Shown: piece by piece, positions 3,850-46,800 of the stretch
Layout of the letters: each line of letters opens with the position of its first letter
Position numbering within the stretch: position 1 is the first letter of the stretch
Assembly: GCA_964390475.1 (NCBI GenBank)
Contig: CAYMIB010000001.1
Location: 1-60,059 of the forward strand
DNA from: an uncultured Candidatus Saccharibacteria bacterium
Lineage (GTDB): Bacteria; Patescibacteriota; Minisyncoccia; Phycocordibacterales; DATGWK01
Reading direction: 5' to 3'
Length of the DNA stretch: 60,059 nt
Notes under the pieces: generated by a model
What the model saw: only the letters and a program-made list of their open reading frames with translations
Database searches by the model: none
What the model was told of the DNA's origin: nothing
Translations under genes and position numbers: made by a program

Positions 3850-3912
3850 GGCGGAGAACTGTTGAGCCCTTCGCTTCACTCAGGATCTTCGAGCTGTTAG
3901 AACTTATTATAT
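3850..3912 (+). repeat. Copy R2 of the repeat, interrupted by an internal ~26-27 nt insertion (3867-3893)
   Basis: GGCGGAGAACTGTTGAG[cccttcgcttcactcaggatcttcgag]CTGTTAGAACTTATTATAT. Both halves match the consensus. Confidence 0.85.
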
Positions 3913-4950: not shown

Positions 4951-4976
4951 AGAATTCAACCTTTGTGCCCATACTA

Positions 4977-5017
4977 GCGGGGGACCGTTGAGGCTGTTAG
5001 AACGTATTATACAGAGC
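4977..5017 (+). repeat. Copy R3 of the repeat
   Basis: GCGGGGGACCGTTGAGGCTGTTAGAACGTATTATACAGAGC. Confidence 0.9.
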
Positions 5018-5075
5018 GTAATAAGCAAATCTATGCCCCAACGCTTACAAAAATCTAAGGGTGGGGTGAAACAGT

Positions 5076-13018: not shown

Positions 13019-13029
13019 AAAATGCCAAA

Positions 13030-13566
13030 ATGTTGAACCTACTTTCTCAAGAACAAAAAGCCATTCTAAAAAAAGATTATTCGCTTCGCCGAACGATCGT
13101 TTGGCTTGAGGCAATTATTGTGGCAATGCTCATTTCGCTCGTGCTTTTAACGCCGTCATATTTTTTGACCAAAATCAGAGCCGAGCAAGCCAAGGTTGAC
13201 CTAGAAAACAATAAAAGAATTCTTGACGCCAAATTGCCACCAGCCGAAATGGTTGCGGAGATCCAAGCGGCGGTCAGAGTTACCCAAGATCTTCGGCCGC
13301 TGGTCGAGCGACGCTCGGTTTATGATTTGGTGAAGATTTTCGAAAGCCATCCACCACAAATAAAAATTTTGAAAATTTCTTTTTTGGAACAAACCGATGG
13401 CATATCCAGGTTCATTGTTGACGGCCGGGCCAATGACCGGGAAAGTCTCACCGCTTTTGGTCGAGCCCTTGAGGGACGGGTAGAGTTTGCAACGGTTGAT
13501 TTGCCGGTTTCCAATTTTGTCAAAGAAAGCAACATTAATTTTTCGATGACTATTACACTGAAATGA
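13030..13566 (+). CDS. pilN: PilN-like pilus assembly protein
   Basis: The N-terminus LNLLSQEQKAILKK followed by a single TM helix is typical of PilN. Confidence 0.55.
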   Translation: MLNLLSQEQKAILKKDYSLRRTIVWLEAIIVAMLISLVLLTPSYFLTKIRAEQAKVDLENNKRILDAKLPPAEMVAEIQAAVRVTQDLRPLVERRSVYDLVKIFESHPPQIKILKISFLEQTDGISRFIVDGRANDRESLTAFGRALEGRVEFATVDLPVSNFVKESNINFSMTITLK

Positions 13567-30350: not shown

Positions 30351-30896
30351 ATGTCAAAACAAAAAATCCAAGAGGGTCGTAATTGGTATGCAATCCACAC
30401 ATATGCCGGATACGAAAACGCAGTGTTGCGAAATTTGAAGCAACGCATCGAGTCGCTTGGCATGGAGGATAAAATTTTCAACGTTATCGTGCCGACTGAG
30501 AAAAAAATCAAGGTCAAGGGCGGCAAACGAGTCGTCGAGGAAGAAAAAATCTATCCGGGTTATATTTTGGTTGAAATGTCGGTGACTGATGATTCTTGGT
30601 ATGTTGTTCGAAACACTCCCCGTGTAACCGGTTTCGTCGGTTCTGGTGTTTATCCAGTACCGCTTAGCAAGCCAGAAGTCGACGCTCTATTTGCCCGAAT
30701 GAATACCGATACTGCAAAGCATATGATTGACCTCTCGATTGGTGATGCGGTTAAGATTGCCGACGGTCCGTTTAAGGAGCTTGAAGGAAAGGTAAGTGAA
30801 GTCGACAGTGAGCGCGGCAAGGTTAAGGTTTTGGTCGCTATGTTCGGCCGCGAAACACCGGTTGAGCTCGACTTCTTGCAAGTGAAGCGCATTTAG
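30351..30896 (+). CDS. nusG: Transcription termination/antitermination factor NusG
   Basis: WYAIHTYAGYENAV NGN domain and a KOW motif (GDAVKIADGPFKELEGKV). Confidence 0.9.
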   Translation: MSKQKIQEGRNWYAIHTYAGYENAVLRNLKQRIESLGMEDKIFNVIVPTEKKIKVKGGKRVVEEEKIYPGYILVEMSVTDDSWYVVRNTPRVTGFVGSGVYPVPLSKPEVDALFARMNTDTAKHMIDLSIGDAVKIADGPFKELEGKVSEVDSERGKVKVLVAMFGRETPVELDFLQVKRI

Positions 30897-30920
30897 GTTA
30901 TCTTTTAGACTCATAAAAAC

Positions 30921-31346
30921 ATGGCTAAAAAGCTTACAAAACAACTCAAAATGATCATCGCGGGCGGCAAGGCCGTTCCAGGTCAGCAACTCGGTCCGGT
31001 CCTCGGTGCCGCTGGCATTAACATTGGTGAATTCGTAAAGCGCTTTAATGCTGAAACCATCACTCGCGTCGGTGAACTTGTACCGACTGTTGTGAACGTC
31101 TACGAAGATCGTACTTACAAGATGATCTACAAGACCGAGCCTGCTAGCCAGATGATTTTGAAAACAATCGGCGCGGAAAAAGGTTCCGGTACTCCAAACA
31201 CCAAGAAAGTGGGGAAAATCAGCAAGGCTCAGATCAAAACCATCGCTGAAAAGAAAATGCCCGACCTCAATGCTCACGATGTCGAAGGTGCCATGAAGAT
31301 CGTCGAAGGTACCGCTCGTTCGATGGGAGTGGAAGTGAAAGGATAA
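30921..31346 (+). CDS. rplK: Ribosomal protein L11
   Basis: IAGGKAVPGQQLGPVLGAAGINIGEFVKRFN. Confidence 0.9.
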   Translation: MAKKLTKQLKMIIAGGKAVPGQQLGPVLGAAGINIGEFVKRFNAETITRVGELVPTVVNVYEDRTYKMIYKTEPASQMILKTIGAEKGSGTPNTKKVGKISKAQIKTIAEKKMPDLNAHDVEGAMKIVEGTARSMGVEVKG

Positions 31347-31347
31347 A

Positions 31348-31424
31348 CAAAAAAACCAAGCATAATTCGTTCCGGCGTGGGCCCCGCTTCGCGAAACGCC
31401 TTCACGAACAATGCTTGGTTTTTT
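31348..31424 (+). terminator. Unusually long (~77 nt) A-tract/T-tract-flanked hairpin after rplK
   Basis: AAAAAACCAAGCAT...ATGCTTGGTTTTTT outer stem, with inner TTCGT/ACGAA and GGCGT/ACGCC pairings. Confidence 0.65.
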
Positions 31425-31487
31425 GTTGCTCGAGAAAGAGTCCAAAGAAAAACCCCGACACATGTCGGGGTTTTGATTGTTGTGGTT

Positions 31488-32591
31488 CTAACTTTTTACG
31501 GTCGCTAGCATGCGGTTTGAGTACGCTTTATCATCCGTGACATCGACGGCACGATCTGCAAGAAATGGTGGTAGGGTGACCTCTTGGTTGATGTCCGTCA
31601 GCTCTACTTCGAGCAGTATCAAGCCCGGAGGCTGGCTGAACACGTCGAGTTCGAAACACAGACCATTCCAAGGGAAGCAGCAACGCTTCTTCTGGATCGG
31701 TCGGCAGTTCGGGTCAGCTCGAGCAAGAAGTGCGAGGTGTTCTTCCTTGGTAACTTGCCTCTCAATCTCAGTTCTGGTCCCGGGCCCGATCTTTTTCTTT
31801 GTTGTGTGAAAGTAGATTGAACCGCCGCCTTGGCTTCGTATCCGAACACGTTCCTCAATATCTGGATTGCCGGTTGTGAGGTAGTACTGGGTAATATCAA
31901 CCCAAGCGTGTGGTGAAGGCAAAAGGCCGATGTCGACACCAGTGATTTTGTACTTTCTCTCGATCTCGACTGGTGCTGGAATACCAAGAACGCTGCAAAC
32001 TTCCCGAAGCACGCGGTCAATTTTTCCTTCCAATCCGTCGCCGCTGTTGTCGACAATTCTCAGATGCGAGTGTCCTGTCCAGGCAGCCAGTGTACGTTCA
32101 TCGAGCGCTGCTGCTTGTTCAACTGTTTCGCTTCTCGCGATATTGTTTTCACAGCTGTAAAGATCGGGTTTGTCGAAAGCCAATGACCGAAGATGAATGA
32201 CCGCGTCGTACGGTTCGTCTCGCAGGCTCACCAGATTCAAGCCACGTTCACCCAAAAGAAGATCAGCTTCGTGTGGGGGAATGTAGGCAAGGACGTCAGC
32301 AAGACCACGGTCACAGAGAATAACTTTCCTGTCGCCCGGCATAAGTCTGGCCGCTTCCAGCATTCGTCGCTCTTTTTCCTGGGTCAGACCAATGATCTGA
32401 CCTTGAAAGCCGCTGGGTCCAAGCCGCCTTGGTTGGATACCTGCAAGAATGAGGTCGGTTGCTGCTTCAGTGACCACAATGACTGTGTAGCCCAGGTCTT
32501 CAAGTCTCTGTCGAAGCTTGCTCAGGGCTGTTGTTTTACCAGCACATGGTCCACCAGTCAGGACAATCTTTGGGATTCGACCGCTGCTCAT
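31488..32591 (-). CDS. AAA_28-type P-loop NTPase/kinase fused to a C-terminal CYTH (triphosphate tunnel) domain
   Basis: Walker A LTGGPCAGKTT at the N-terminus. The C-terminal half starts with VEIERKYKI (the ExExK CYTH signature). GC-rich. Confidence 0.6.
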   Translation of the reverse strand: MSSGRIPKIVLTGGPCAGKTTALSKLRQRLEDLGYTVIVVTEAATDLILAGIQPRRLGPSGFQGQIIGLTQEKERRMLEAARLMPGDRKVILCDRGLADVLAYIPPHEADLLLGERGLNLVSLRDEPYDAVIHLRSLAFDKPDLYSCENNIARSETVEQAAALDERTLAAWTGHSHLRIVDNSGDGLEGKIDRVLREVCSVLGIPAPVEIERKYKITGVDIGLLPSPHAWVDITQYYLTTGNPDIEERVRIRSQGGGSIYFHTTKKKIGPGTRTEIERQVTKEEHLALLARADPNCRPIQKKRCCFPWNGLCFELDVFSQPPGLILLEVELTDINQEVTLPPFLADRAVDVTDDKAYSNRMLATVKS

Positions 32592-32761
32592 GTCACACTC
32601 CTTTTGGTTCAGTCACTTTCTGCTGTGTACAGGGATTCTTCCTGTAGGTTATGGAATTAGAAAGGGGGAGTCAAGTTTTTGGATTGGTTTTTGCGCTAGC
32701 CTTGAGTCACGTTTCACAACCGCTTCGGGAAAAATACTAATGGTATGATGATTAAAATTTA

Positions 32762-33385
32762 ATGACCGACTACAAACAAATCACAAAAGGAACATACGAT
32801 GATATCGCCGCGGATTATTCGGAACGAGATTCATCTGTGATTGCAGAAAGTTGGGAAGTCAAAGGGGCTCTCGACGCATTTGTCGCTCTTTTAAAGCCCG
32901 GTGCTCACGTTCTTGATGTTGGTTGTGGTGGCGGTCGTGACTCACGATATCTTGCTGAAAAAGGAATGCGGGTAACGGCGATCGATTTTTCAGAGAGTAT
33001 GGTTCGAAATGCACAGAAAATAAATTCCAACATTGAGTATATGCAGATGGATTTCGAGCATATTGATTTTCCTGAAAAAGCTTTTGATGGAGTATGGGCA
33101 AATGCTTCGCTTCACCATATCCCGAAAGCAAATCTTGCACATGTTCTCAGATCACTTCATCGTATTCTTGTGTCCGACGGTGTTTTGTTTTTGAAGGTGA
33201 AACACGGTGATTCTGAAGGAGTACGTGAGAATATGAAGTTTGGAAAATCACTTAAACGTTACTTCGCTTTCTATAAACCCGAGGAAATGATCAGTCTCGT
33301 TGAGTCCGCTGGTTTCCAAATAGTTAGGCATTCTCTAGTAACCTCTGATGAGTGGCTTGATGTTGTGGCGAGAAAAATAGGCTAG
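32762..33385 (+). CDS. Class I SAM-dependent methyltransferase
   Basis: VLDVGCGGGRDSRYLAEKG and a Methyltransf_11-like layout. Confidence 0.7.
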   Translation: MTDYKQITKGTYDDIAADYSERDSSVIAESWEVKGALDAFVALLKPGAHVLDVGCGGGRDSRYLAEKGMRVTAIDFSESMVRNAQKINSNIEYMQMDFEHIDFPEKAFDGVWANASLHHIPKANLAHVLRSLHRILVSDGVLFLKVKHGDSEGVRENMKFGKSLKRYFAFYKPEEMISLVESAGFQIVRHSLVTSDEWLDVVARKIG

Positions 33386-33390
33386 GTCGG

Positions 33391-33894
33391 TTACTTCCGT
33401 TCCCAGATTTGAAAACTGAAACCGTCGTGATCCTCTTGGCTTACCACCTTGAATTTATCTTCGTAGGCAGGGAAGAAGGTGTCTGCGGTTTCGATTTTTT
33501 GGTCGACGATTGTCAGGTAAAGTCTTTCGACGTAAGGTAAGGTGAAATTGTAGATTTGGCCGCCGCCGATTACGAATATTTCTTCACTGCCTTTTGCTTC
33601 ACTTGCGGCTTTGATTGCTTCATCAAAGGTCGATACGATGAAAGCCCCCTCGGCCTTTAGTTCGCCGTCGTTGTTCATAATGATGTTGGTCCGGCCGGGC
33701 AAGGGACGAAATTTTTCCGGAAGAGATTCCCAAGTTTTCTTACCCATGATTACTGGATGATTCAAAGTGAATTCTTTGAACCTTTTCATATCCTCCGGAA
33801 TTTGCCACGGAATTGCGCCTTTATTTCCTATCGCTCTACTGCCTTTGGCAATTGCGGCAATGGATGAAATCCTCATTTGTAGTTTATTGTTCAA
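33391..33894 (-). CDS. folA: Dihydrofolate reductase
   Basis: IGNKGAIPWQIPEDMKRFKEFT, VIMGKKTWESLP, PLPGRTNIIM. Confidence 0.9.
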   Translation of the reverse strand: MNNKLQMRISSIAAIAKGSRAIGNKGAIPWQIPEDMKRFKEFTLNHPVIMGKKTWESLPEKFRPLPGRTNIIMNNDGELKAEGAFIVSTFDEAIKAASEAKGSEEIFVIGGGQIYNFTLPYVERLYLTIVDQKIETADTFFPAYEDKFKVVSQEDHDGFSFQIWERK

Positions 33895-34537
33895 CTTTGT
33901 GATCTTGTTTTAGCTTCTTAATGTCACCCTTCGCAACCAGCTCGATCTCGATTGCATCACGGTCGGATTTTTCTTTTTCCATAACAAATCCCTCGATAAT
34001 GTCTTTTTTATGGTAACGACTTTTTTCGGCTTCGATAACCGTGTCGAGTCTTTCAAAAACGATTTGGCAAAAACGTTCACCCGGGTAAAGTTTTACAACC
34101 TGTGATCCTGTATTGTTTCTGACCGGGACGACGAGTTGGCCTTCGTAGCCAGAATCAATTATTCCTGTAAGGTCGACAGACAAACCCTTTCGGTTGGTCG
34201 ACGATCGCGGATACAGGACGGCCATTAAATCCTTCGGGATTTTTACCGATTCAAGGGTTGAAACTAGAACATATTCGTTTGGAAGTAATTCAAAAATCTG
34301 CCCTTGTTCTAGTTCTATCGTTTCAAAATATGCCGGCCGTTTTTTGTCGAAATGGTCGATGTTTAGAGCTTCTCGGCCGCGCTGAGTCATGACCCAATTT
34401 TTTGGAACAAGAAATGTAAAACCGAGTCGGAGATCGACTGCATGTGCTTGAATTTGAAATGAGTCCAAGGCCGGACTAAAACCAATCTCGTTCATTTTCA
34501 CTCTTTCTAGTATTTGGTTTTTTGTCAGGATTGCCAT
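33884..34537 (-). CDS. dcd: dCTP deaminase/dUTPase-superfamily protein with C-terminal extension
   Basis: VDLRLG, PRSSTNRKGL, GIIDSGYEGQLVVPVRN and FCQIVF motifs. Overlaps folA by 11 nt. Confidence 0.75.
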   Translation of the reverse strand: MAILTKNQILERVKMNEIGFSPALDSFQIQAHAVDLRLGFTFLVPKNWVMTQRGREALNIDHFDKKRPAYFETIELEQGQIFELLPNEYVLVSTLESVKIPKDLMAVLYPRSSTNRKGLSVDLTGIIDSGYEGQLVVPVRNNTGSQVVKLYPGERFCQIVFERLDTVIEAEKSRYHKKDIIEGFVMEKEKSDRDAIEIELVAKGDIKKLKQDHKVEQ

Positions 34538-34560
34538 GGTGTTATTTTACTTGTTTGAAG

Positions 34561-35397
34561 CTAAAGAACAATTTTTAGACCCTTTATGGCTTCACCTGGC
34601 GTATATTGGTCTGTTAAGTTTTTGATAATTTCTTCGGCCAAAGCAACATCTTTTTTCTCAGCTCGTTCGAAAGCGTTGGCTGGCAGGTTGAGTTCAACTT
34701 TTTTCTGATGGGTGGTTCGACTCATGAGCTCCTTGGCTGCTTCGTAGTGGATACTATAAATGTGAGCATTTGAAATAGTGTGGGTGTATATGCCGGGTTT
34801 CACTCCAAGTCTTGCCGCGAGGATCGTTTGAACCAAAGCAAAACCGGCAACATCGTGAGGGCATCCGAGGATCATGTCGTTTGAACGGATGATGTTGTGC
34901 ATGTGAAGCCGACCACCAATTATATTTACAGTGAAAGAGAAAAGGCAGGGCACATTTTTTTTCATCACCCCGCCGAGCCCGTCGCTACCCGGGTCCCAGG
35001 CGATGACGACACCGTGCCTGGAACTCGGCTCTTTTTCAAGGAGTTCAATGAGTTTACCGATCTGGTCGCGACCAAAATGTTTTCGCCAGCGATAGCCGTA
35101 GGCGACGGTTACAACGTCGTTTGGATTTGTGAAGTCGTCCCAGATTTTGGTGTAGTCTCGTAGAAAGTCCTCAGGTTTTCTTGAGCCACTTAGAAACCAG
35201 ATTTGTTCAGCGACGAAGATCCGAATCGGAATTTTTCGAAGACTTAAAAGTGGGAAACCGTCTTTTTCAAGGTCAGTAGAGAAGGTGAGACCAGGGAGAG
35301 CGCGGGTTTCGTGACCAGTTCTTTGGTTAAGATCAGAGATTCCTTCTTCCATGATTTTTGAAATCATTGTCTGGTATATGTGGTCGAAGGATGTCAT
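34561..35397 (-). CDS. Thymidylate synthase (ThyA) family protein with Asp at the Asn177-equivalent specificity position
   Basis: Ungapped match to the E. coli ThyA block PCH-19aa-RSCDVFLGLPFNIASYALL, here PCL-19aa-RSNDMILGCPHDVAGFALV. Also YGYRWR and AHIY. Confidence 0.8.
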   Translation of the reverse strand: MTSFDHIYQTMISKIMEEGISDLNQRTGHETRALPGLTFSTDLEKDGFPLLSLRKIPIRIFVAEQIWFLSGSRKPEDFLRDYTKIWDDFTNPNDVVTVAYGYRWRKHFGRDQIGKLIELLEKEPSSRHGVVIAWDPGSDGLGGVMKKNVPCLFSFTVNIIGGRLHMHNIIRSNDMILGCPHDVAGFALVQTILAARLGVKPGIYTHTISNAHIYSIHYEAAKELMSRTTHQKKVELNLPANAFERAEKKDVALAEEIIKNLTDQYTPGEAIKGLKIVL

Positions 35398-35462
35398 GAA
35401 AGCATTATAGTATACTTACTCGAAGCGATAAAATTGAAGCCGAAAATACCTCCCATACCTCT

Positions 35463-35981
35463 ATGGTTACTCAAATTAACTACCCGTATTTGCCCGATGG
35501 TCGTAGCTTCAAGTATGTTTCTATTGACAATCAATTCATGCGACTGGCTCGAAGCTACGCCATGTCCAATTCAGTTGATGACGACACTCCGACTGGTTCA
35601 GTGATTGTAAAAAATCAGGCAATCGTCGGTCTTGGGGCAAATGGCACTGATTATCATAAGAAAAATGTCTGTGTGCGCGTGGTAAAAAAAATTCCAACCG
35701 GACAAGGCTACGAACTTTGTGAAGGCTGTAATCCAAAAAATCACAGCGAGCCTAGGGCGATTGCTGATGCAATTTCAAAAAAGCACGAAACGAAAGACGC
35801 AGATCTGTATCTATGGGGTCACTGGTGGTGCTGCAGATGGTGCTGGGCTTCTATTATTGAAGCCGGAATAAAAAATGTTTACTTGCTTGAAGACAGTCAG
35901 AAATTATTTGACGATAATTCAAAGGAAAATATTCTTGGCAAACAATTTAAATTATTCGCCGCTGAATTACAGTCTAGATAA
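35463..35981 (+). CDS. dCMP/cytidine deaminase-family zinc enzyme
   Basis: An HSEPRAI (HxE) motif and a later Cys pair (WWCCRWC). Sits among dNMP-metabolism genes. Confidence 0.6.
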   Translation: MVTQINYPYLPDGRSFKYVSIDNQFMRLARSYAMSNSVDDDTPTGSVIVKNQAIVGLGANGTDYHKKNVCVRVVKKIPTGQGYELCEGCNPKNHSEPRAIADAISKKHETKDADLYLWGHWWCCRWCWASIIEAGIKNVYLLEDSQKLFDDNSKENILGKQFKLFAAELQSR

Positions 35982-35993
35982 AAGATATAAAAC

Positions 35994-37169
35994 ATGAAAG
36001 ATAAAGAAATTGCAAAACTCATAAAGTCTGAATCAACCCGACAGAAAAAAGTTGTGAATCTTATCGCCTCTGAAAATTATGTGTCAGACGATGTGCTTGA
36101 AGCTCTTGGTTCAAAACTCACTAACAAATACGCCGAAGGCTATCCAGGTAAAAGATATTATGGAGGCAATAAATTTTCGGATGAAGTAGAAGATTTGGCC
36201 CAAAAACGTGCCCTGAAACTTTTCGGCCTGACTGCAAAAAATTGGCATGTAAATGTGCAGGCATTGTCTGGTTCCCCAGCAAACTTGGCGGTGTATTTTG
36301 CTCTCGTTTCTCCGCACGGAAAAATTATGGGCATGAGCCTTGATCACGGGGGACACTTAACCCACGGTCATCGAGTTTCTATGACTGGAAAGTTTTGGAA
36401 TCAGATTCCATATGGTGTCGATCCAAACACTGAGGTTTTGAACTACGACGAGGTGCGCAAGATCGCCATGGAGCATAAGCCAAACATTATCGTTGCTGGC
36501 TTCACTGCCTATCCGCGAAAAATTGATTTTAAAAAGTTTCGAGAAATTGCTGACGAATGCGGGGCGTTTTTGATGGTCGACATGTCACATGTTGCCGGAC
36601 TCGTGGCTGGTGGGGTGTACCCGAATCCGTTTGAATACGCTGACATCGTGACGACTACTGTGCATAAAACTCTGCGCGGTCCACGTTCAGCTCTTATTTT
36701 TGCCCGTAAAGATGCTCGCGAACTCGACAAGAAAATCGACAAAGCAATTTTCCCAGGTCTACAGGGCGGTCCCCATTTAAATCAAATCGCGGCGGTCGCA
36801 GTGGCGCTCAAAGAGGCTTCGACGCCGGCCTTTAAAAAGTACTCAGCTCAGGTTGTAAAAAACGCCTCGGCGCTTGCGGGCGAACTCAAAAAACTCGGCT
36901 GGAAAATTATTTCCGGTGGCACGGACACCCATCTCATTCTCGTCGACACCTGGATGAAGGGCGCGGGAATTTCTGGCGCTGAAGCAAGTACTCGTCTTGA
37001 AAAAGAGGGAATTATTGTAAACAAAAATACGATTCCGTATGAAACCCGTTCAGCGTTTGATCCGTCGGGAATTCGCCTTGGCACTGCGGCGGAAACGACG
37101 CTCGGTAAAAAAGAGAAAGATATGGTGGCGATTGCCCGGAAGATTAACAGGATCTTAAGATTGAAATAA
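35994..37169 (+). CDS. glyA: Serine hydroxymethyltransferase
   Basis: LIASENYVS, YAEGYPGKRYYGG, TTTVHKTLRGPR. Confidence 0.9.
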   Translation: MKDKEIAKLIKSESTRQKKVVNLIASENYVSDDVLEALGSKLTNKYAEGYPGKRYYGGNKFSDEVEDLAQKRALKLFGLTAKNWHVNVQALSGSPANLAVYFALVSPHGKIMGMSLDHGGHLTHGHRVSMTGKFWNQIPYGVDPNTEVLNYDEVRKIAMEHKPNIIVAGFTAYPRKIDFKKFREIADECGAFLMVDMSHVAGLVAGGVYPNPFEYADIVTTTVHKTLRGPRSALIFARKDARELDKKIDKAIFPGLQGGPHLNQIAAVAVALKEASTPAFKKYSAQVVKNASALAGELKKLGWKIISGGTDTHLILVDTWMKGAGISGAEASTRLEKEGIIVNKNTIPYETRSAFDPSGIRLGTAAETTLGKKEKDMVAIARKINRILRLK

Positions 37170-37883
37170 ATGAAAAAAACCTCGGCGAAAAAAGGCAAAC
37201 TCATTGTTATCGACGGCATCGACGGTTCAGGTAAAGCGACTCAAGTCCGACTTTTGGCGGATCATTTAAAAAAAGATGGGGTGAAAATTAAGACCATTGA
37301 TTTTCCGCGGTACGAAGAGAACTTTTTTGGCGGACTCATAGGTCAGTTTCTTTCCGGTATGTACGGCGATTTTATTCAGGTCGCGCCGCGTCTGGCCTCG
37401 GTCCTTTACGCCGCAGATCGTTTTGAATCAAGTAAAAAAATTCGTGGTTGGCTCAAGCAGGGCTACACAGTTGTTGCAGACCGTTATGTGAGCGCGAATC
37501 AGATTCATCAGGGCGGAAAAATTCCGAATGCGAAACAGCGCCGAGAATTTTTGGCTTGGCTCGACAAGATGGAGCATGAAGTGTTTGGTATTCCTCGGCC
37601 GGACTTGGTGGTATATCTCGACGTACCGTTTGAAGTCAGTAAAGAGTGGCTACAGAAAAAAGTCGCTCAAGCGAAAAAGGTTTATCTCAAAGACGGTCGC
37701 CGCGACGTTGCCGAGGACAATCTTCTTCATCTTGAACATTCCCGCAACGGCGCACTCGAGCTCGTTCGAACTCAGAAAAATTGGATAAAGATTCAGTGTT
37801 GTCAGGGAATGGTCTGCATGTTGCCGGAAGGTGTGCACGAGGAGGTTTATAAAATCGTGAAAAAGAAACTCGGCCGAAAATAA
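37170..37883 (+). CDS. tmk: Thymidylate (dNMP) kinase
   Basis: IVIDGIDGSGKATQ P-loop and DRYVSANQIHQGG. The start directly abuts the glyA stop. Confidence 0.8.
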   Translation: MKKTSAKKGKLIVIDGIDGSGKATQVRLLADHLKKDGVKIKTIDFPRYEENFFGGLIGQFLSGMYGDFIQVAPRLASVLYAADRFESSKKIRGWLKQGYTVVADRYVSANQIHQGGKIPNAKQRREFLAWLDKMEHEVFGIPRPDLVVYLDVPFEVSKEWLQKKVAQAKKVYLKDGRRDVAEDNLLHLEHSRNGALELVRTQKNWIKIQCCQGMVCMLPEGVHEEVYKIVKKKLGRK

Positions 37884-37916
37884 ATCTGAGAATGTATCAA
37901 GTGTTACAATTGCTAT

Positions 37917-38351
37917 ATGCCGCTTACGCTAAAAATTGTCCGACTCGATAAAGAAATGCCAATGCCGAAGTTTGCCCAACCGGGGGATGCGGCGTTCGAT
38001 CTTTTCTCAGTCGAAAAAGTCACCATCGCTCCAGGCGAACGAGTGCAGGTAAAAACGGGGCTCAAAATGGAGATTCCCAACGGTTATGTCGGTTTCATTT
38101 GGGATAAAAGCGGGCTTTCGCACAAGGCAGGGCTAAAAACACTTGGCGGGGTGATAGATGCCAGTTATCGTGGTGAAGTCATGGTCGGCATGATCAATCT
38201 TTCAAAAGAGTCGTATACTTTTGAAAAAGGTCACAAGGTTGCTCAGATGGTGATTCAGAAGCGAGAAGATGTCAGTATTGTTGAAGTCGAGGAAGGTGAG
38301 CTTTCCGAAACAGCGCGGGGTGAAGGGGGTTTCGGTAGTACAGGAAAATAA
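37917..38351 (+). CDS. dut: dUTP diphosphatase
   Basis: GDAAFDL, GVIDASYRGEV and RGEGGFGSTG motifs. Confidence 0.9.
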   Translation: MPLTLKIVRLDKEMPMPKFAQPGDAAFDLFSVEKVTIAPGERVQVKTGLKMEIPNGYVGFIWDKSGLSHKAGLKTLGGVIDASYRGEVMVGMINLSKESYTFEKGHKVAQMVIQKREDVSIVEVEEGELSETARGEGGFGSTGK

Positions 38352-38376
38352 TCAGGAAAATGATGAAGAAAGTTTT

Positions 38377-40098
38377 ATGTTTAATTTTTTAAAAATTTTC
38401 AGCGGGCGAAAAAATGGGCAATCAAAAACTGACTTGGTTCGGTCGGTTATTTTAAATGAGCTAAAAAAAATCTCGATCGACGCGACACCTGAAGAGTTGG
38501 ATTACCCAAAGAACCTTTCAAACGGTGATTTTTCTTTTTTCATTAAAGACAATAGTGTCGACCCGACCACACTGCCGATTGGTCAAATTTCTCATTCGTA
38601 TATTGAGAAAGTTTCGGTACTTGGCCGCTTCATTAATTTTTATTTATCTAAACAGTTTTTTGCAGACTGTTTGGAAAGTGTTATTGAGGCAAAGAGTGGG
38701 TTTGGATCAAACGAAAATTTGGCGGGGCGAAAGGTCATCATTGAATACACCGACCCGAATTTATTTAAAGAACTCCACATTGGCCATTTGATGAGCAACA
38801 CGGTGGGTGAGTCGCTTTCTAGAATTATTGAATGGAATGGGGCGAGTATAAGCCGGGCGATTTATCAGAGTGATGTTGGACTTAACGTCGCCAAAGCTAT
38901 TCGGGGCATTATTGATTTGGAAAAAGAAAAGCCGGTTGATACAGCATCACTTCAGGAAAAAATTTCGTTCATTGGCCGCGCTTACGCCCATGGCTCTGGT
39001 TTGTATGAGAACAACCCTGAAACCAAAAAAGAAATTGACGCACTGAACAAAATTGTTTACGAAAAATCCGACTCGCAGGTCAATGAGATTTATGATTGGG
39101 GGAAGGAAATCAGCCTGGAGCACTTTGAAGAATTGTATAAAAAACTCGGCACGAAGTTTGATTATTATTTTCTGGAAAGTGAAGCGGCGCCGATTGGCCT
39201 TTTTGCAGTCGAAGAACTTTTGGAAAAGGGGATTTTGGAAAAAAGCGAAGGCGCAGTGGTGTTCAAGGGCGAGCGGTACGGCCTGCACACTCGCGTTTTT
39301 GTGAACTCGCTTGGCTTGCCGACATATGAAACAAAAGAGCTCGGACTTTCTAAAATGAAATTCGACCGCAAGGATTGGGATCAGTCTATCGTGATCACTG
39401 CCAACGAACAGACGGATTATTTTACGGTCGTACTAAAGGTGCTTGAGTTTTATGATCACCGCGCGGCCAATCGGACCAAGCACGTCAGTCACGGCATGCT
39501 TCGTTTTGCTGAAGGGAAGATGTCTTCGCGAAAAGGGAACGTTATCACAGGTGAATCACTCATCTCTGATGTCGAGGCACTCGTGCAAGAAAAAATAAAA
39601 GACCGCGACCTGCCAGCTGATGAGAAAGACGAAATTGCCGAGCAGGTGGCTGTTGGAGCGATCAAATATTCCATCCTTAAACAATCTCCGGGTCGCGACA
39701 TCATTTTCGATTTTGAAAAATCCCTTTCATTTGAAGGCGATTCAGGTCCGTATTTGCAATACACCCATGCAAGGGCGTGTTCAATTTTGCGCAAGGCAGC
39801 CGAACAAAAAATTCACAGCGACACTTCCAAAATTTCTGATCAAATAAGTGACATCGAACATTTGCTTATTCGTTTTCCGGCTGTCGTCGAAAGAGCTCAA
39901 AAAGAATTGGCGCCGCAACTCATCACCACATATCTCACCAATCTCGCCGCGGCATTTAACCATTACTACGCTGAACAAGTGATTGTTGATGCGGGGAAAT
40001 CAGAATCTGCATACCGCATCGCCCTGACTATGGCGGTGAAAAATGTTTTGGGAAGTGGCCTGTGGCTTTTGGGAATAAAATCGCCGGAGAGGATGTAG
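38377..40098 (+). CDS. argS: Arginyl-tRNA synthetase
   Basis: TDPNLFKELHIGHLMS (HIGH) and MSSRKG. The track ORF start at 38269 overlaps dut, so the ATG at 38377 was chosen. Confidence 0.85.
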   Translation: MFNFLKIFSGRKNGQSKTDLVRSVILNELKKISIDATPEELDYPKNLSNGDFSFFIKDNSVDPTTLPIGQISHSYIEKVSVLGRFINFYLSKQFFADCLESVIEAKSGFGSNENLAGRKVIIEYTDPNLFKELHIGHLMSNTVGESLSRIIEWNGASISRAIYQSDVGLNVAKAIRGIIDLEKEKPVDTASLQEKISFIGRAYAHGSGLYENNPETKKEIDALNKIVYEKSDSQVNEIYDWGKEISLEHFEELYKKLGTKFDYYFLESEAAPIGLFAVEELLEKGILEKSEGAVVFKGERYGLHTRVFVNSLGLPTYETKELGLSKMKFDRKDWDQSIVITANEQTDYFTVVLKVLEFYDHRAANRTKHVSHGMLRFAEGKMSSRKGNVITGESLISDVEALVQEKIKDRDLPADEKDEIAEQVAVGAIKYSILKQSPGRDIIFDFEKSLSFEGDSGPYLQYTHARACSILRKAAEQKIHSDTSKISDQISDIEHLLIRFPAVVERAQKELAPQLITTYLTNLAAAFNHYYAEQVIVDAGKSESAYRIALTMAVKNVLGSGLWLLGIKSPERM

Positions 40099-40224: not shown

Positions 40225-41055
40225 ATGGGTTCCAAGAATAGTAGTAAGGGCAAGCCAGTGCCAACTGATGACACGTTTGGGGAGTATGTGGCAAACGTTT
40301 TGCGCGGAATGCAGCCTGGGTATCCAGTAGACGTGGTGAGTCCGCGGGAAATTCTGATAAATGGTCGTCGTCTGGATCCGGATAATCTCCTTCGAATGGT
40401 GAACAATGAGCCTGACCGTGGACAGGAAATTGTGGAGCTTTACCTGGAGCAATTGTTGCTTGGTGAGGTGATCCAACTCGCGACGATACCCTTCGACTTT
40501 GCAAGGCCCAGGATCATGCCACGTATCCGGCCCGAGTCGATCTTCGAGCATCTCTCTCGTGATCAGGTCGCACACGTGCCGTTTGTGAACGATACTGTGA
40601 TTACGTTTGTGACCGATCTTCCTGATATGACAATTTCGATCACCACCGATCAACTGACACGGTGGAAGGTGCCGATCAGTGAGATTGACAAGATTGCACG
40701 ACACAATCTGGATAGCCGTCTGGATAAAAATCTTTCTTACCCGGATATCCAGACTGCTCGAAATCACCACAGTGAAATGGTGGCCATTGGTGTTAGTGAT
40801 GGATACGACGCGTCGAGGTTGCTGTTTGTTGATTTGTTCGAGCGTATGCAACCTACCCTCGGTAAAAAATTCTACGTGGCCATTCCGGCTCGTGACTGTT
40901 TCACGGCATTCAACTGTTCTAACGATAGTGCGCTTCAGAATATGCGTGGCATGATTCAGAGTGACTTTATGAAGCTTCCATATCCAATCACACCAGCATT
41001 GTTCACTGTCACCAGCGACGGCGTCGTTGGGTCAGAAGATTTGGCGAAGAAGTGA
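40225..41055 (+). CDS. DUF1444 (YtpQ/UPF0354)-like protein, paralog 1
   Basis: IMPRIRPESIFE...HVPFVNDTVITFVTD...SDGYDASRLL...YVAIPARDCF parallels the B. subtilis YtpQ pattern from memory. GC-rich. Confidence 0.5.
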   Translation: MGSKNSSKGKPVPTDDTFGEYVANVLRGMQPGYPVDVVSPREILINGRRLDPDNLLRMVNNEPDRGQEIVELYLEQLLLGEVIQLATIPFDFARPRIMPRIRPESIFEHLSRDQVAHVPFVNDTVITFVTDLPDMTISITTDQLTRWKVPISEIDKIARHNLDSRLDKNLSYPDIQTARNHHSEMVAIGVSDGYDASRLLFVDLFERMQPTLGKKFYVAIPARDCFTAFNCSNDSALQNMRGMIQSDFMKLPYPITPALFTVTSDGVVGSEDLAKK

Positions 41056-41069
41056 CAACTTGACATCAA

Positions 41070-41097
41070 AGCCCTGGAAAACCGGGGCTTTTTTCTT
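41070..41097 (+). terminator. Intrinsic terminator
   Basis: AGCCCTGGaaaaCCGGGGCT followed by a T-run. Confidence 0.7.
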
Positions 41098-41118
41098 TGT
41101 CTCTATTGTCAGTATCGT

Positions 41119-41147
41119 TTGACAAAATCTTTTTAAATAACTATTGT
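41119..41147 (+). promoter_or_regulatory. Sigma70-type promoter TTGACA-17-TATTGT
   Basis: Canonical spacing, with CAGA 6 nt downstream. Confidence 0.55.
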
Positions 41148-41189
41148 TTCCCGCAGAGTTTGATCATTTTAAAAGCAAAGGAGTTCGAT

Positions 41190-42035
41190 ATGACGACGCC
41201 ACCTGCTGACAATGCTGGTCCGCACCTTGAATCACAGCCCGACCCGACCTCGGGAAATGCCTCAGAGTGGAATCCTCATGCGACTGACGGCAGTCCGCCA
41301 CCATCTCCGACCGACCCAGTGAAGCAATTTTCCGGACATAAGTTTGCGCTCAAAACAATGCTCGGTGATTGCAGTGGCCTTGTTGATGAACTCGAAGCGT
41401 CGGGCCGACTTACGCCCCACAACATTCAGTCAGTGATGTCGGGTGTGTCTATGCTAAAGGCGCAGGCACGTGAGACGTTGCGGAACGGACTCTACAGGCT
41501 GACGTTTGATGAAGTTCGAGACAGTCTGAGTGTTTCATCCTCGAGAATTGAGACGATCATCGACATGCCGGCTACTGACAAGATGTTTGTGGTCAAGGAG
41601 CACTTCGTCCAAGACGCTGTGGGGGTGAGTGGAATAAAGTTTATTCACCTAGACCAGCTGTTTGTTGAAAGATTTCTGACTGGGGAAGGGAAGGTTGAGT
41701 CACCGACGCCTACACACAAGCTCGCTCGAGTGACGATTGTCCATGGCACCAAAGACTCGCGAATTATTGATGAGCTGGGTGGTCCAGATCTTGTTGAAAC
41801 CATGGTCGCTGACGTTTGTCACCTCATTGTTGAGGCAATGACAGATAAAAATCTCCAACTGGACATGGATGGATGGGAAAACATTTTCTACATTCGTGAT
41901 TTGATCGGCGAACTACAAGTGGTGCACGTATGGGAAGACGACGCAGGTTGGGTTGTTAATACTCGAGCTATCGATAGTCAGCCAAACGGACAAGATGGAA
42001 AGTGTCGAGTGTTTGTTCGAACCCTTGTCCCTTAA
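41190..42035 (+). CDS. Hypothetical protein (GC-rich orphan)
   Basis: ATG preceded by AAAGGAG. 281 aa with a Pro-rich N-terminus. Confidence 0.5.
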   Translation: MTTPPADNAGPHLESQPDPTSGNASEWNPHATDGSPPPSPTDPVKQFSGHKFALKTMLGDCSGLVDELEASGRLTPHNIQSVMSGVSMLKAQARETLRNGLYRLTFDEVRDSLSVSSSRIETIIDMPATDKMFVVKEHFVQDAVGVSGIKFIHLDQLFVERFLTGEGKVESPTPTHKLARVTIVHGTKDSRIIDELGGPDLVETMVADVCHLIVEAMTDKNLQLDMDGWENIFYIRDLIGELQVVHVWEDDAGWVVNTRAIDSQPNGQDGKCRVFVRTLVP

Positions 42036-42138: not shown

Positions 42139-42615
42139 ATGAAACACGCCACAAATTGTTTTCTCCTTCGCGCAGACGGAAAAGTTTTGCTGTCGATGAA
42201 AAAGCGCGGTTTTGGGGTTGGTAACTGGAACGGGTCGGGCGGGAAAGTTCAAGAAGGTGAGAGTGTTGAAGAAGCGGCCGTGCGGGAAGTTTCCGAAGAA
42301 ATCGGGGTGACGCTCGCGACAAAGGATCTTGAAAAAGTTTACGAACTAAACTATATAAAAACCGATGACCCACAATGGGGGATGTTTGTCCACGGTTTTA
42401 TCGTTCGAACCTGGAGCGGTGAGCCGACAGAAAGCGAAGAAATGAAACCAGCTTGGTTTGATCTAGATAAAATTCCATACGACAAAACCTGGGCAGACAC
42501 CAGGCACTGGTTGCTAAAAGTACTGGCTGGCGAAAAAGTAAAAGGTGATTTTATATACAAACCAGACGGTAAAAGTCTGGAGCGTTTTGATGTGGCCAGT
42601 GTTGTAAACTTCTAA
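42139..42615 (+). CDS. NUDIX hydrolase (MutT-like)
   Basis: Nudix box GGKVQEGESVEEAAVREVSEEIGV. Confidence 0.85.
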   Translation: MKHATNCFLLRADGKVLLSMKKRGFGVGNWNGSGGKVQEGESVEEAAVREVSEEIGVTLATKDLEKVYELNYIKTDDPQWGMFVHGFIVRTWSGEPTESEEMKPAWFDLDKIPYDKTWADTRHWLLKVLAGEKVKGDFIYKPDGKSLERFDVASVVNF

Positions 42616-42746: not shown

Positions 42747-43721
42747 ATGAGTCAAGTCGAGGCTAGCAAGTCCAAACTGAACGATTTACTCGTTAACTTG
42801 GCACAAGCCACTCGGACTGGTGAACTCACTATGGAGCAACTGGAGTGGTTTTCGAAGTCGACTAAGGAGCAGCGCGAAAAGTTGCTAGAAGACATGCGGT
42901 CAGCTTGCTCCCTGTTAGAGGAAGAGACCGCACGCGAAGCAAAAGTCGGTTTCGCAGCATTTGTGGCGCAAACCTTGCGTAGGATTAATCCCAAGCTTTC
43001 GGTTGTTGAAGTATCTGCGATGGAAGTTCAGGTTGATGGTCGGCGCCTCGACCTAGAGAACATCTGGCGCATGGTGAATCATGATCCTGAACGAAAGACG
43101 GAAATTATTGAGCACTACCTGAATCAAATGTTTTTAGGTGATGGAATTCAATTGAGCACAATGTCTTTCGAGTTCGCCAGACCCAAGATTATGCCGCGCA
43201 TCCAGCCCGAGTCGATTTTCGAACTCCTCTCGCGTGATCACGTCGCCCACGTACCGTTCGTCAACGATACGGTGATTGTGTTTGTGACTGATCTGCCGAA
43301 TATGACAATTTCCATCACCACCGAGCAATTGGTGAGATGGAAAGTGTCAGCTGAAGACATCGGTAGGATTGCCAAAGAAAACCTTGCCAAATACGTTCCT
43401 GATCTGGAAGTCAGTCTCGTCGAGAGCAAAGAAGGTGCACAGGCTGCGATTTTTGGTCAGCACGATGGCTACGACGCAGCCCGTCTCTGGCTTACTGGAC
43501 TCTACGAGCGTTTTTGCGATCAACTTGGCGGCGACTTTTTTGTCGCTGTGCCAGCCCGGGACATGTTTGTGGCGTTCAGTCGTGGTCCGGAGCCTTTCAT
43601 ACGGCGATTACGAGAGCGCGTAACATCAGACTTCAAAAGACTTCCGTACCCGATCTGCCCGGACTTTTTTCTGGTCACTCGCGATGGTGTTGCCGGGACG
43701 AAGCCAGTGTCTGCGTTCTAG
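42747..43721 (+). CDS. DUF1444 (YtpQ/UPF0354)-like protein, paralog 2
   Basis: Shares a long ungapped block with the 40225 gene (IMPRIQPESIFELLSRDHVAHVPFVNDTVIVFVTDLPNMTISITTEQLVRWKV). Confidence 0.5.
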   Translation: MSQVEASKSKLNDLLVNLAQATRTGELTMEQLEWFSKSTKEQREKLLEDMRSACSLLEEETAREAKVGFAAFVAQTLRRINPKLSVVEVSAMEVQVDGRRLDLENIWRMVNHDPERKTEIIEHYLNQMFLGDGIQLSTMSFEFARPKIMPRIQPESIFELLSRDHVAHVPFVNDTVIVFVTDLPNMTISITTEQLVRWKVSAEDIGRIAKENLAKYVPDLEVSLVESKEGAQAAIFGQHDGYDAARLWLTGLYERFCDQLGGDFFVAVPARDMFVAFSRGPEPFIRRLRERVTSDFKRLPYPICPDFFLVTRDGVAGTKPVSAF

Positions 43722-43846: not shown

Positions 43847-46800
43847 ATGGCTGATATCCATAACAAAACTCCAAAAACCGCCGGCTTGAAAGCTGATGGT
43901 TCGCAGAAAAGCCCTGCAAAAAGCCCGGTCGCGCTTGCCGAAGAAAAAACTCTCCAATTTTGGCGCGAAAAGCAGATTTTTAAAAAGACTCTTGAAAAAC
44001 CGTCGCCGGGCGGGAATTTTATTTTTTACGACGGTCCGCCGTTTGCAACCGGTTTGCCTCACTATGGCCACATTTTAGTAAGCACCATTAAAGACGCTGT
44101 GCCACGATATCAAACGATGCGCGGCAAGCATGTTGAGCGCCGTTGGGGTTGGGACTGCCATGGTTTGCCGATCGAAAACATTGTTGAAAAAGACCTTAAG
44201 GTTTCTGGGAAAAAAGAAATCGAAGAGCTTGGTATTGATCGTTTTAACGAATACGCTCGAAGCAAAGTTTTAGATTTTGCTGATCATTGGCGCGATACTG
44301 TGGAACGTATCGGCCGCTGGGTGGACTATGACGGTGCCTACATGACGATGGATAACACATTCATCGAATCTGTTTGGTGGGCGCTCAAAGGCATTTGGGA
44401 TAAAAATTTAATTTACGAAGGCACAAAAGTTTTGCCGTACTGCCCGCGTTGCGAAACCCCAATCGCGAATTCCGAAATTGCGATGGACGGGTCGTATAAA
44501 GACATTACAGATATTTCGGTGTATGTAAAACTGGCTGTCGAAAACGAGCCGCGAACATTTTTGATCGTCTGGACGACAACTCCGTGGACATTGCCAGGCA
44601 ATACTGCCGCTGCAGTGAACCCCGACCTAGACTACGTCATCGTTAAGATCGGTGGAGAAAATGGCGACTATTACATCGTTGCGAAAGACAAAACAGGAAT
44701 TTTCAAAGAAAAATTTGAGCTGGTCGAAGAAATAAAAGGCAGCGCGCTGGTTGGTAAAAAATTCAAGCCGCCGTTTGATTATTTCACAGGGGACACATTT
44801 GCTGACGGTAAACCAAACAATCTTCCAAACCGCGAAAACGCTTGGAAGGTCTACGCCGCGCCGTACGTTACCGCCGAGGCTGGTTCGGGTATCGTCCATC
44901 TCGCACCCGCATATGGTGAAGAAGACATGGCGCTTGCCAAGGAGCACAATATTCCGTTTATTCGCCACGTTGGCCACGACGGAAAATTCACGGCCGAAGT
45001 CACTGATTTTGCTGGTGTAAAAGCTAAACCGAAAGAAGATCATCAGTCAGGTGATGTTTTGATAATTAAAAATCTAGCGGCTCGGGGCTTGCTTTTTGCA
45101 AAAGAAAAAATCGTTCACTCATACCCGCATTGTTATCGTTGCGAAACCCCTCTTTACTATTTTGCTTTGCCAGCTTGGTTTATAAAAATCGCTACTGAAA
45201 CTGAAAATGGAAAAGCTGTCAAAAAAGATCTCCTAAAAAATAATGAAGACATAAACTGGGTGCCGGAGCATTTGAAACACGGCCGGTTCGGAAAAAGTGT
45301 TGAGGGTGCACCGGATTGGAATATTTCTCGAAACCGTTACTGGGCTTCGCCTTTGCCTTTTTGGAAGTGTCAGAAATGTGAAAAAGCGGTGTGTGTTGGT
45401 TCACAAGATGATCTAGCAAAACACGCACCAGCAAAAAATAAATATTTTCTGATGCGCCACGGCGAGTCGGAGTTTAACCTCGTCAACAAAATCAGCAGTA
45501 CGCCGAATGACAAAAACCACATAACAGAAAAGGGTAGGACCGAGGCTGTTGCGGCCGCAACATTACTAAAGAAAGACGGTGTTGATTTGATTTACGCTTC
45601 TGATCTAGTTCGAGCGAAAGAAACCGCAGAGATTGTTGCCAAGGAAATCGGTTTGCCGATTGAAAGCATTATTTACGCGCCAGAAATCCGCGAGCTAAAT
45701 GCTGGTACATATAATGGCAAAACCTGGGATGAATACCGGGCAACCTTCACCTCGGTTGCCGACCGTTTCGAAGCCGAGCATGTTACCGAGGACGGGGAGT
45801 CTCTTCTAGATGTTCGGGATCGGGCAACAAAATTCATTTATGATCTAGAAAAGAAACACGCCGGTAAAAAAATTCTCATCGTCAGCCACGGCGATACGAT
45901 TTTCTTTATGCAAAAAGGTGTGAAGGGTCTGACCAAAAAAGAACTCGTCAAAGCTTTCGAGATCAAAAATGGAATGATTCCAACCGGCACATATGAAGAG
46001 CTCGATTTCTCACCGATTCCTCACAATAAAAATTTCGAACTTGATTTTCATCGACCATATATTGATGAAATAACTTTTGCCTGCGCGTGCGGTGGTGTGA
46101 TGCATCGAATTCCAGAAGTCATCGACTGCTGGTTTGAGTCTGGTTCAATGCCTTTTGCTCAAAATCATTATCCTTTTGAAAACAAGGAAAAATTTGAGAA
46201 AAATTTCCCCGGTGATTTTATTTCAGAATACATCGCTCAAACTAGGACTTGGTTCTACTACATGCATGTAGTTTCGACAATTCTTTTTGGAAAAGCAGCG
46301 TTTAAACACGTTTTGACGACCGGTACGGTTTTGGCCGAGGACGGCGAAAAGATGTCGAAATCCAAAGGTAATTTTCCAGACCCAGCGATTATTTTCGACA
46401 AATTTGGCGTTGATGCACTTCGTTTCTACTTACTCGGTTCCACTCTTCTTAAATCCGAGGATTTAAACTTTTCGGAAAAAGGCGTCGACGAAGTTTATAA
46501 AAAAATAATTTTGCGGCTGAAAAACGTTGCTTCTTTTTATGAAACTTACGCTGCCGGTGAAGAAGTAGTTACAGGTACGATCGCTACAACCGTCAGTGCA
46601 CCTGACTCGAAAAATATTCTCGATCGATGGATAGTGGAGAGGATCAACATTGTTGTGGCTGAGGTTACTTCATCTATGGAGGCTTACAAAATTGACCAAG
46701 CTCTTTCTCAGATTGATGGTTTCATCGAAGATCTTTCGGTTTGGTTTTTGCGTCGTTCACGCGAACGTCTGAAAAGTGACGACAAAGTGACCCGCGAAGA

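Follow-up and report, generated by a model that had tools for sequence, protein, structure and literature searches.

We analyzed a 60,059-nt stretch of DNA (the window) from an uncultured Candidatus Saccharibacteria bacterium, centering on a gene for a homolog of the thymidylate synthase (TS) ThyA and on the nucleotide-metabolism genes around it. An earlier note on this DNA had described the protein as a ThyA homolog with an Asn-to-Asp switch at the specificity position, encoded by a cellular organism resembling the Candidate Phyla Radiation (CPR). The cellular CPR origin was borne out, as the window encodes NusG, L11, several aminoacyl-tRNA synthetases, and five tRNAs, and its relatives are Patescibacteria. 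The gene and its two key codons are:

34561-35397 (-): ThyA-family protein of 278 aa, assigned to the Asp177 clade by PF00303, active-site shell, indels, and tree
34852-34854 (-): GAT codon of Asp182, aligned with E. coli Asn177, the pyrimidine specificity determinant
34945-34947 (-): codon of the catalytic Cys151 (E. coli Cys146), with Leu152 as the next residue in place of the canonical His147

Judged from its sequence relationships, the protein belongs, as a cellular representative, to the Asp177 (Xp12-type) branch of the TS superfamily. It is predicted to be a dCMP C5-methyltransferase that would use 5,10-methylene-tetrahydrofolate (CH2-THF) and release dihydrofolate (DHF).

The ThyA homolog and the Asp177 branch

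The ThyA homolog matched PF00303 with E=2.1e-52, its residues 7-254 covering profile positions 2-252 of 266. Using phmmer, it was also matched to 124 solved TS chains, with its segment 'gcphdvagfal' placed without gaps on 'gvpfniasyal' of the solved TS structures. Alignment with E. coli ThyA from the MG1655 genome paired Asp182 with Asn177, Leu152 with His147, and His128 with Arg127. The ungapped alignment, the catalytic Cys151, and the Asp at the Asn177 site that the earlier note had described were thus confirmed, as were its readings of PCL for PCH and RH for RR, and the T4 gp42 motif RSNDVVFGFRND matched its quotation. The spacer between PCx and RS, given there as 19 residues, was found to be 18 residues long in both the ThyA homolog and the E. 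coli protein; the equivalence without gaps stands.

In E. coli numbering, the ThyA homolog retains Cys146, Arg21, Glu58, Trp80, Tyr94, and Arg126, and also Arg166, Ser167, Asp169, His207, and Tyr209. The canonical dUMP-specific marker Asn177 is missing, with Asp182 in its place. In addition, the canonical set His147, Gln165, Leu143, Trp83, and Arg127, which was present in all 19-20 Asn-type sequences sampled, is replaced by Leu152, Ile170, Asn148, Phe89, and His128. Mutating Asn to Asp in the E. coli and L. casei TS shifts the preference to dCMP. The score of the ThyA homolog was above the cut-off for TIGR03284 (121.6 vs 108.35) and far below it for seven other TS equivalog models (for example, 143 vs 327). 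A TS-like C-terminal tail, which is absent from gp42, is present (...YTPGEAIKGLKIVL vs ...YDPHPGIKAPVAI).

The Asp was found to be a family trait of Patescibacteria. We retrieved 2327 homologs from the database, of which the top 120 were 68-85% identical and nearly all exactly 278 aa long. Those with names came from Parcubacteria/Paceibacterota, Saccharimonadales, and relatives, and were labelled 'thymidylate synthase'. Asp occupied the Asn177 site in 119 of these 120 (pattern RSND..LG.P.D), with one sequence falling outside the pattern. When each GTDB species was represented by one genome, scanning yielded 236 relatives. The best 80 loci, examined for their source, were all from Patescibacteria metagenome-assembled genomes except for one 3.6-kb contig binned as Saprospiraceae. 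The Asp was invariant in 82 of 82 genomic loci, which together with the database homologs supports that the switch is real and not a chance substitution. Across distant CPR lineages, the identity of the ThyA homolog (~67%) was higher than that of L11 (38-61%), arginyl-tRNA synthetase (ArgRS; 40-46%), and serine hydroxymethyltransferase (SHMT; 48-49%) from the same loci. This high conservation and the location of the gene in the nusG-rplK region point to a housekeeping role.

To place the protein among its relatives, we exhaustively searched 1.84 billion cluster representatives (50% identity) and aligned the best 150 with E. coli ThyA, T4 gp42, and the Xp12 enzyme. The closest ~85 of these clusters all had Asp177, Asn143, Phe83, a hydrophobic residue at 165, and Pro, Leu, Val, or Ile instead of His at 147. 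The canonical combination (Asn177, His147, Leu143, Trp83, Gln165, and Arg127) appeared first at E~1e-36. The signature of Asn143, Pro/Leu/Val/Ile147, Phe83, and Asp177 was present in 91 out of 135 full-length sequences, including Xp12. Twelve residues within 6 Å of the substrate C5 have been enumerated, and an acidic residue at position 143 marks the hydroxymethylases (PMC13326640). At every class-specific position among these 12, the ThyA homolog agrees with Xp12, and the residues that match Xp12 and differ from canonical TS are Lys142, Asn143, Leu/Pro147, Ile/Leu165, Asn/Ser168, Asp177, and Phe83. The equivalent of position 143 is Asn148, as in Xp12, and not Asp or Glu. Two indels were also common to the ThyA homolog, Xp12, and PaMx74, namely the loss of the AWPTPDG loop (AYGYRWRxHFGRDQ) and the insertion of DGLGxxxx before NVPC.

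We constructed a phylogenetic tree by neighbor joining, a distance method only. The CPR ThyA family was monophyletic in 99 of 100 bootstrap replicates and was the sister group of a large Xp12/PaMx74 subclade. The split between Asn and Asp types was recovered in 97/100 replicates without T4 gp42 and in 83/100 after deletion of nine signature columns. With T4 gp42 included, it was recovered in only 26/100 because this long branch moves about; gp42 itself fell with the Asn-type TS clade, away from the ThyA homolog. The strong PF00303 match and the position in the Asp177 clade are the outcome of the family alignment and tree that had been proposed as a check. Among deposited phages, the closest by tblastn were Xp12 and its relatives PaMx74, PaMx28, AAT-1, Bosa, and DLP4, with 33-38% identity over ~96% of the length.

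The functions of this branch have been studied in phages. Positions 147 and 177 were the top two separating cytosine-modified from unmodified phage DNA contigs (MetaGPA, PMC8670742). A dCMP-deaminase-family gene lay within 3 kb of the TS gene in 70% of modified but 6% of unmodified contigs. The Xp12 enzyme and five of seven metagenomic Asp177 homologs produced 5-methyldeoxycytidine (5mdC) in vivo, and neighboring deaminases supply dT from 5mdC nucleotides (bioRxiv 10.1101/2024.12.05.627091). The earlier note had offered two options for the ThyA homolog, a divergent TS or an enzyme of cytosine C5 substitution. The second is better supported, as the protein shares a clade with the verified Xp12 dCMP methylase, while an ordinary TS is weighed below as a rival.

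The conserved module and its enzymes

The ThyA homolog lies in a compact set of genes on both strands of the window:

33391-33894 (-): dihydrofolate reductase (DHFR), PF00186 E=1e-45; the first 11 nt coincide with the end of the Dcd-like gene, in the same operon
33884-34537 (-): Dcd-like dUTPase-fold protein of 217 aa, TIGR02274 113.7 bits against a cut-off of 92.8
34124-34126 (-): codon of Pro138 in the Dcd-like protein, where E. coli dCTP deaminase has its catalytic Glu138 (LVVPV vs IVLEF)
35398-35462: divergent intergenic region of 65 bp between the ThyA homolog and the deaminase, a presumed shared control region
35463-35981 (+): zinc deaminase of the dCMP-deaminase family, 172 aa, PF00383; His94-x-Glu96 and Cys124-x-x-Cys127
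35994-37169 (+): SHMT, which regenerates CH2-THF, PF00464 E=8e-165
37170-37883 (+): dTMP kinase (Tmk), PF02223; equivalents of Arg74 and Asn100 of M. tuberculosis TMPK kept (alignment with 1g3u/4unp)
37917-38351 (+): canonical trimeric dUTPase (Dut) with a C-terminal GGFGSTG motif, TIGR00576 146 bits

The genes for DHFR, a Dcd/dUTPase-fold protein, a zinc deaminase, SHMT, Tmk, and Dut were therefore all present as the earlier note had described them. A promoter scan of the 65-bp divergent region found no strong match to the sigma-70 consensus and nothing above background.

We searched 82 CPR loci with the proteins of the window. In each of the 76 loci that extend far enough upstream, the zinc deaminase gene was the immediate divergent neighbor of the ThyA homolog, and the Dcd-like gene was located at most 1.5 kb downstream of the ThyA homolog in 71 of 71 loci. 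DHFR was within 1.5 kb of the ThyA homolog in 58 out of 71. In the 30 loci flanked by 9 kb or more on each side, the deaminase and the Dcd-like protein were each found in 30, DHFR in 28, SHMT in 24, Tmk in 21, and Dut in 12. The module was usually located beside rplK, in the secE-nusG-rplK...rplA-rplJ-rplL region, whose gene order is otherwise conserved (30351-38351 in the window). No thyX, Asn-type thyA, or tdk was seen within 10 kb on either side of the locus genes or among the ~46 open reading frames (ORFs) of the window that were scanned.

The three nearest non-CPR relatives of the ThyA homolog (46-47% identity) were on phage-like contigs with helicase, HNH, DNA polymerase A, and anti-defence hairpin protein genes. 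A dCMP_cyt_deam_1 gene directly followed the TS gene in two of the three and was one gene further away in the third. On another phage-like contig of 58 kb (L088, Logan SRR28892722), we identified a fusion of a deaminase with an Asp177-type TS (P0140, 10001-11973), adjoining a Dcd-like gene whose product carries Pro in place of Glu138 and extends into a long C-terminal tail. A three-gene module is thus common to CPR and a probable virus. A class I ribonucleotide reductase and a VanY-type peptidase are also encoded near P0140.

The earlier note had likened the gene set to that of T4-like phages. The likeness is not specific to T4: gp42 groups elsewhere, and the closest parallel is the set of Xp12 and PaMx74, comprising a nucleoside triphosphate (NTP) pyrophosphatase, a TS with Asp, a deaminase, and DHFR. 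The Xp12/PaMx74 enzymes share with the ThyA homolog the clade, the active-site residues, and the two indels described above, and their genes likewise have adjacent genes for DHFR and a dCMP-deaminase-family protein, with an NTP-pyrophosphatase-type gene in the module. The differences are that the sequence identity is only 33-38%, that the deaminases are very divergent, and that the pyrophosphatase analogue is a Dcd-fold protein in CPR and a MazG/PRA-PH protein in Xp12/PaMx74. Moreover, Tmk and SHMT are linked in the CPR module, unlike in Xp12, and position 127 is His or Gln in CPR rather than Arg. Whereas Xp12 is a phage, the CPR module is cellular, chromosomal, phylum-wide, and located among ribosomal-protein genes.

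The Dcd-like protein shares with Dcd, Dcd-Dut, and the SIRV1 dUTPase the fold, the RSS...R phosphate-binding motif, the equivalent of Asp128, and a Dcd-like C-terminal region, and it adds a charged C-terminal extension of ~40 residues. Its catalytic Glu138 is replaced by Pro, as in 72 of 72 locus homologs and 120 of 120 database homologs (192 of 192 in total), and also in the L088 copy. Johansson et al. in 2005 are said to have used E138A Dcd as the inactive form for crystallography. Of the label given in the earlier note, dCTP deaminase/dUTPase fold, the fold therefore stands, with TIGR02274 above its cut-off, and the deaminase activity probably does not. The protein probably binds a pyrimidine dNTP without deaminating it and is predicted to be a non-deaminating dCTP (or dUTP) pyrophosphatase. 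With Pro at the catalytic position, the classical feed of dCTP through dUTP to a dUMP-specific TS is probably missing. Its most economical role, which we infer from the MazG/PRA-PH proteins encoded beside the Xp12 and PaMx74 enzymes, would be the hydrolysis of dCTP to dCMP and pyrophosphate. We considered Dcd-like dUTPases, known or presumed, as a precedent for loss of the Glu and rejected them, since the SIRV1 and HGTV-1 proteins, like E. coli Dcd, keep it. The database names 'thymidylate synthase' for the Asp177 proteins and 'dCTP deaminase' for the Dcd-like proteins without Glu may mislead reconstructions of CPR metabolism.

The deaminase belongs to a family with ~700 database matches, the named ones of which come from CPR. 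His94-x-Glu96 (His94-Ser-Glu96 in the window), Cys124-x-x-Cys127, and four further Cys/His residues are invariant in this family. A single-sequence search against the PDB gave no match, and the dCMP deaminases were reached by profile only, the best solved relatives being those of cyanophage S-TIM5, S. mutans, human, and T4 (4p9c, 2hvv, 2w4l, and 1vq2). An AlphaFold (AF2) model had a pLDDT of 83, and its top Foldseek matches included the S-TIM5, human, T4, and PBCV-1 dCMP deaminases, plus RibD and TadA. A direct likeness to the Xp12 deaminase was sought and rejected, the similarity being negligible. On the evidence of its motifs, the protein is catalytically competent, and it is predicted to be a 5-methyl-dCMP deaminase giving dTMP. 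The Tmk encoded nearby has retained the counterparts of Arg74 and Asn100, the residues that contact thymine O4/N3 in M. tuberculosis TMPK. Its position beside the deaminase, as a kinase that reads thymine, suggests that the step to dTMP takes place at the monophosphate level.

Further genes for nucleotide enzymes were observed around the module or its relatives. In the window, a 367-aa protein joining a P-loop AAA_28 (NadR/dNK-like kinase) domain to a CYTH triphosphate-tunnel domain is encoded two genes from the module (31488-32591, -), with a weak homolog in one of the 82 loci. A small AAA_28/dNK-like protein is encoded two genes upstream of the Asp177 TS on the phage-like contig L095. HAD_2 hydrolase genes lie beside the module in L005 (Saccharimonadales GCA_035457485.1) and L003 (14143-14790). 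In L005, a T4 gp1-like deoxynucleotide monophosphate (dNMP) kinase (PF21448) accompanies HAD_2 (both at 11980-13360), and the two might act as 5'-nucleotidase and kinase on non-canonical dNMPs. An Xp12 'HAD hydrolase' was considered as the counterpart of the CPR HAD gene and dismissed, since the Xp12 protein is PRA-PH/MazG-like. In L003 (7370-9346, -), Tmk is fused to a C-terminal region of ~450 residues with no Pfam or PDB match. A fusion of ThyX to this Tmk was rejected, as a precomputed faint Thy1 match was not reproduced by Pfam and PDB searches.

A possible route through 5-methyl-dCMP and its alternatives

Taken together, these features favor a pathway from dCTP through dCMP and 5-methyl-dCMP to dTMP, to which we give about an even chance of being correct. 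It would be the Xp12 pathway in a cellular form with a housekeeping role. In this scheme, the Dcd-like protein would hydrolyse dCTP to dCMP and pyrophosphate. The ThyA homolog would then methylate dCMP, and not dUMP, at C5, with CH2-THF as both carbon donor and reductant, yielding 5-methyl-dCMP and DHF, and DHFR and SHMT would recycle the folate. The divergent dCMP-deaminase-family enzyme would convert 5-methyl-dCMP to dTMP, which the adjacent dTMP kinase would phosphorylate. The textbook order would thus be reversed, and no dUMP intermediate would be required. We infer all the substrates and products, and the role of the Dcd-like protein, from the residues, clade, synteny, and loss of Glu138 that were observed. 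The combination of Asn at position 143, a TS-like C-terminal tail, and linkage to DHFR and SHMT argues for reductive methylation rather than hydroxymethylation, in line with the meaning that the earlier note had attached to the adjacent DHFR.

Several points weigh against this pathway. The same gene set serves the classical order (dCMP to dUMP to dTMP), and gene content can therefore not separate the two; the TS active site, with its indels, and the phylogeny can, and they favor a cytosine substrate. The canonical dUTPase of the cluster yields dUMP, which would have no evident consumer, and this is a weakness of the model. The deaminases of CPR and Xp12 are only distant relatives. Dictyostelium Dcd2, which has CPR relatives, complements an E. 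coli dcd mutant (PMC10733785). In addition, the assignment of the pathway in CPR is wholly computational.

The most serious rival, which we consider unlikely but still of some weight, is that the ThyA homolog is an ordinary dUMP-specific TS in which Asp182, perhaps protonated, serves as Asn. The cluster would then be the classical thymidylate cycle, with dCMP deaminase and dUTPase making dUMP, ThyA making dTMP, and DHFR and SHMT recycling the folate, a pathway that the zinc deaminase, Dut, DHFR, SHMT, and Tmk suit exactly. The ThyA homolog resembles canonical ThyA (EC 2.1.1.45; E. coli, L. casei) in its fold, catalytic Cys, phosphate- and sugar-binding residues, C-terminal tail, and DHFR linkage, and it presumably carries out the same reductive methyl transfer from CH2-THF. 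The catalytic Cys, Arg166, Ser167, Asp169, Tyr94, Glu58, Trp80, His207, and Tyr209 are all kept, and the TIGR03284 score is above its cut-off. An essential TS would fit the very high conservation and the location in a ribosomal operon, and neither the window nor the 82 loci showed another TS. However, the differences from the canonical enzyme are not confined to Asn177. Canonical Asn177, His147, Gln165, Leu143, Trp83, and Arg127 are replaced by Asp, Leu or Pro, Ile, Asn, Phe, and His; those at 147, 165, 143, and 83 are replaced as in verified dCMP methylases, and Arg127 is replaced too. The ThyA homolog lies outside the Asn177 clade and within the Asp177 clade, of which no dUMP-specific member is known, and seven of the eight NCBIfam TS equivalog models score it far below their cut-offs. 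If it were an ordinary TS, the whole co-varying shell that it has in common with proven dCMP methylases would be misleading.

It is less probable still that 5-methyl-dCMP is itself phosphorylated and incorporated, such that 5-methylcytosine (5mC) stands for much or all of the cytosine in Patescibacteria DNA, as in Xp12. The deaminase would then divert part of the pool to thymidine nucleotides, while the Dcd-like protein would deplete dCTP. The 5mC-genome phages Xp12 and PaMx74 use the same module (an NTP pyrophosphatase analogue, TS with Asp, deaminase, and DHFR), and the T4 gp1-like dNMP kinase (PF21448) adjoins the module in one Saccharimonadales locus. That kinase is not conserved in the module, however, and the kinase that is conserved is a Tmk with thymine-contact residues. 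Replacement by 5mC would be invisible to ordinary Illumina metagenomics. A literature search found no report of globally modified CPR DNA, although many long-read CPR genomes exist. The phage deaminase mSCD-B5 acts on 5mdCTP, which would fit incorporation, but in E. coli 5mdC reached the DNA only with T4 gp1 (bioRxiv 10.1101/2024.12.05.627091). Global cytosine modification, raised in the earlier note, is thus not the best reading, since the constant deaminase and the usual thymine-contact Tmk suggest that the pathway ends in dTMP. A pyrimidine hydroxymethylase (T4 gp42-like or MilA-like), or an enzyme adding some other C5 substituent, is very improbable. The ThyA homolog does have Asp177, RSND, and a predicted cytosine substrate in common with the T4 gp42 dCMP hydroxymethylase. 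In contrast to gp42, which has Asp at 143, no C-terminal tail, and THF rather than DHF as its product, it has Asn at 143 and keeps the tail, and its DHFR linkage implies DHF production. Furthermore, gp42 groups with the Asn-type TS outside the group of the ThyA homolog, and no glycosyl- or other transferases were found nearby among the window ORFs scanned.

To our knowledge, ThyA and ThyX, both of which methylate dUMP, are the only routes of cellular de novo thymidylate synthesis. The class of enzyme described here is known from phages, and we found no account of a major cellular radiation in which it is conserved and apparently the only TS homolog. The literature on thymidylate synthesis in CPR, Patescibacteria, and Saccharibacteria that we searched yielded no discussion of Asp177 in CPR or of its pairing with a Dcd that lacks Glu. 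Methylation of dCMP followed by deamination has so far been documented only in infection by a few phages. If the proposed pathway is correct, a very large bacterial radiation would make thymidylate in this way, by a third cellular route. The reconstruction of CPR nucleotide metabolism would then change, thousands of 'thymidylate synthase' and 'dCTP deaminase' entries would be mis-described, and exchange of genes for a core function between phages and CPR would be indicated. It also raises the possibility of 5mC-rich DNA in ultra-small bacteria; should 5mC indeed replace a large share of the cytosine in many Patescibacteria, they would be the first among cellular lineages to use a non-canonical base wholesale and would draw their thymidine from 5-methyl-dC nucleotides. 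As tools for methylation sequencing, the dCMP methylase, the possible 5mC-nucleotide deaminase, and the Dcd without Glu are likewise of interest.

Other genes in the window

Several genes outside the module had unusual features. An isoleucyl/class-I tRNA synthetase of 1203 aa (43847-47458, +) contains a complete His_Phos_1 domain (residues 534-708) within its catalytic domain. A 373-aa protein (3907-5028, -) had a weak match to the RuBisCO large chain (27.5 bits, below the cut-off of 30.1) and may be a form III-like RuBisCO of CPR nucleotide salvage. Two DUF1444 paralogs (40225-41055, +, and 42747-43721, +) flank an ORF without a Pfam match (41097-42035) and a NUDIX hydrolase (42139-42615). 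The longest ORF for ArgRS (38269-40098, +) begins 83 nt inside the dUTPase gene, and the true ArgRS start is probably located further downstream.

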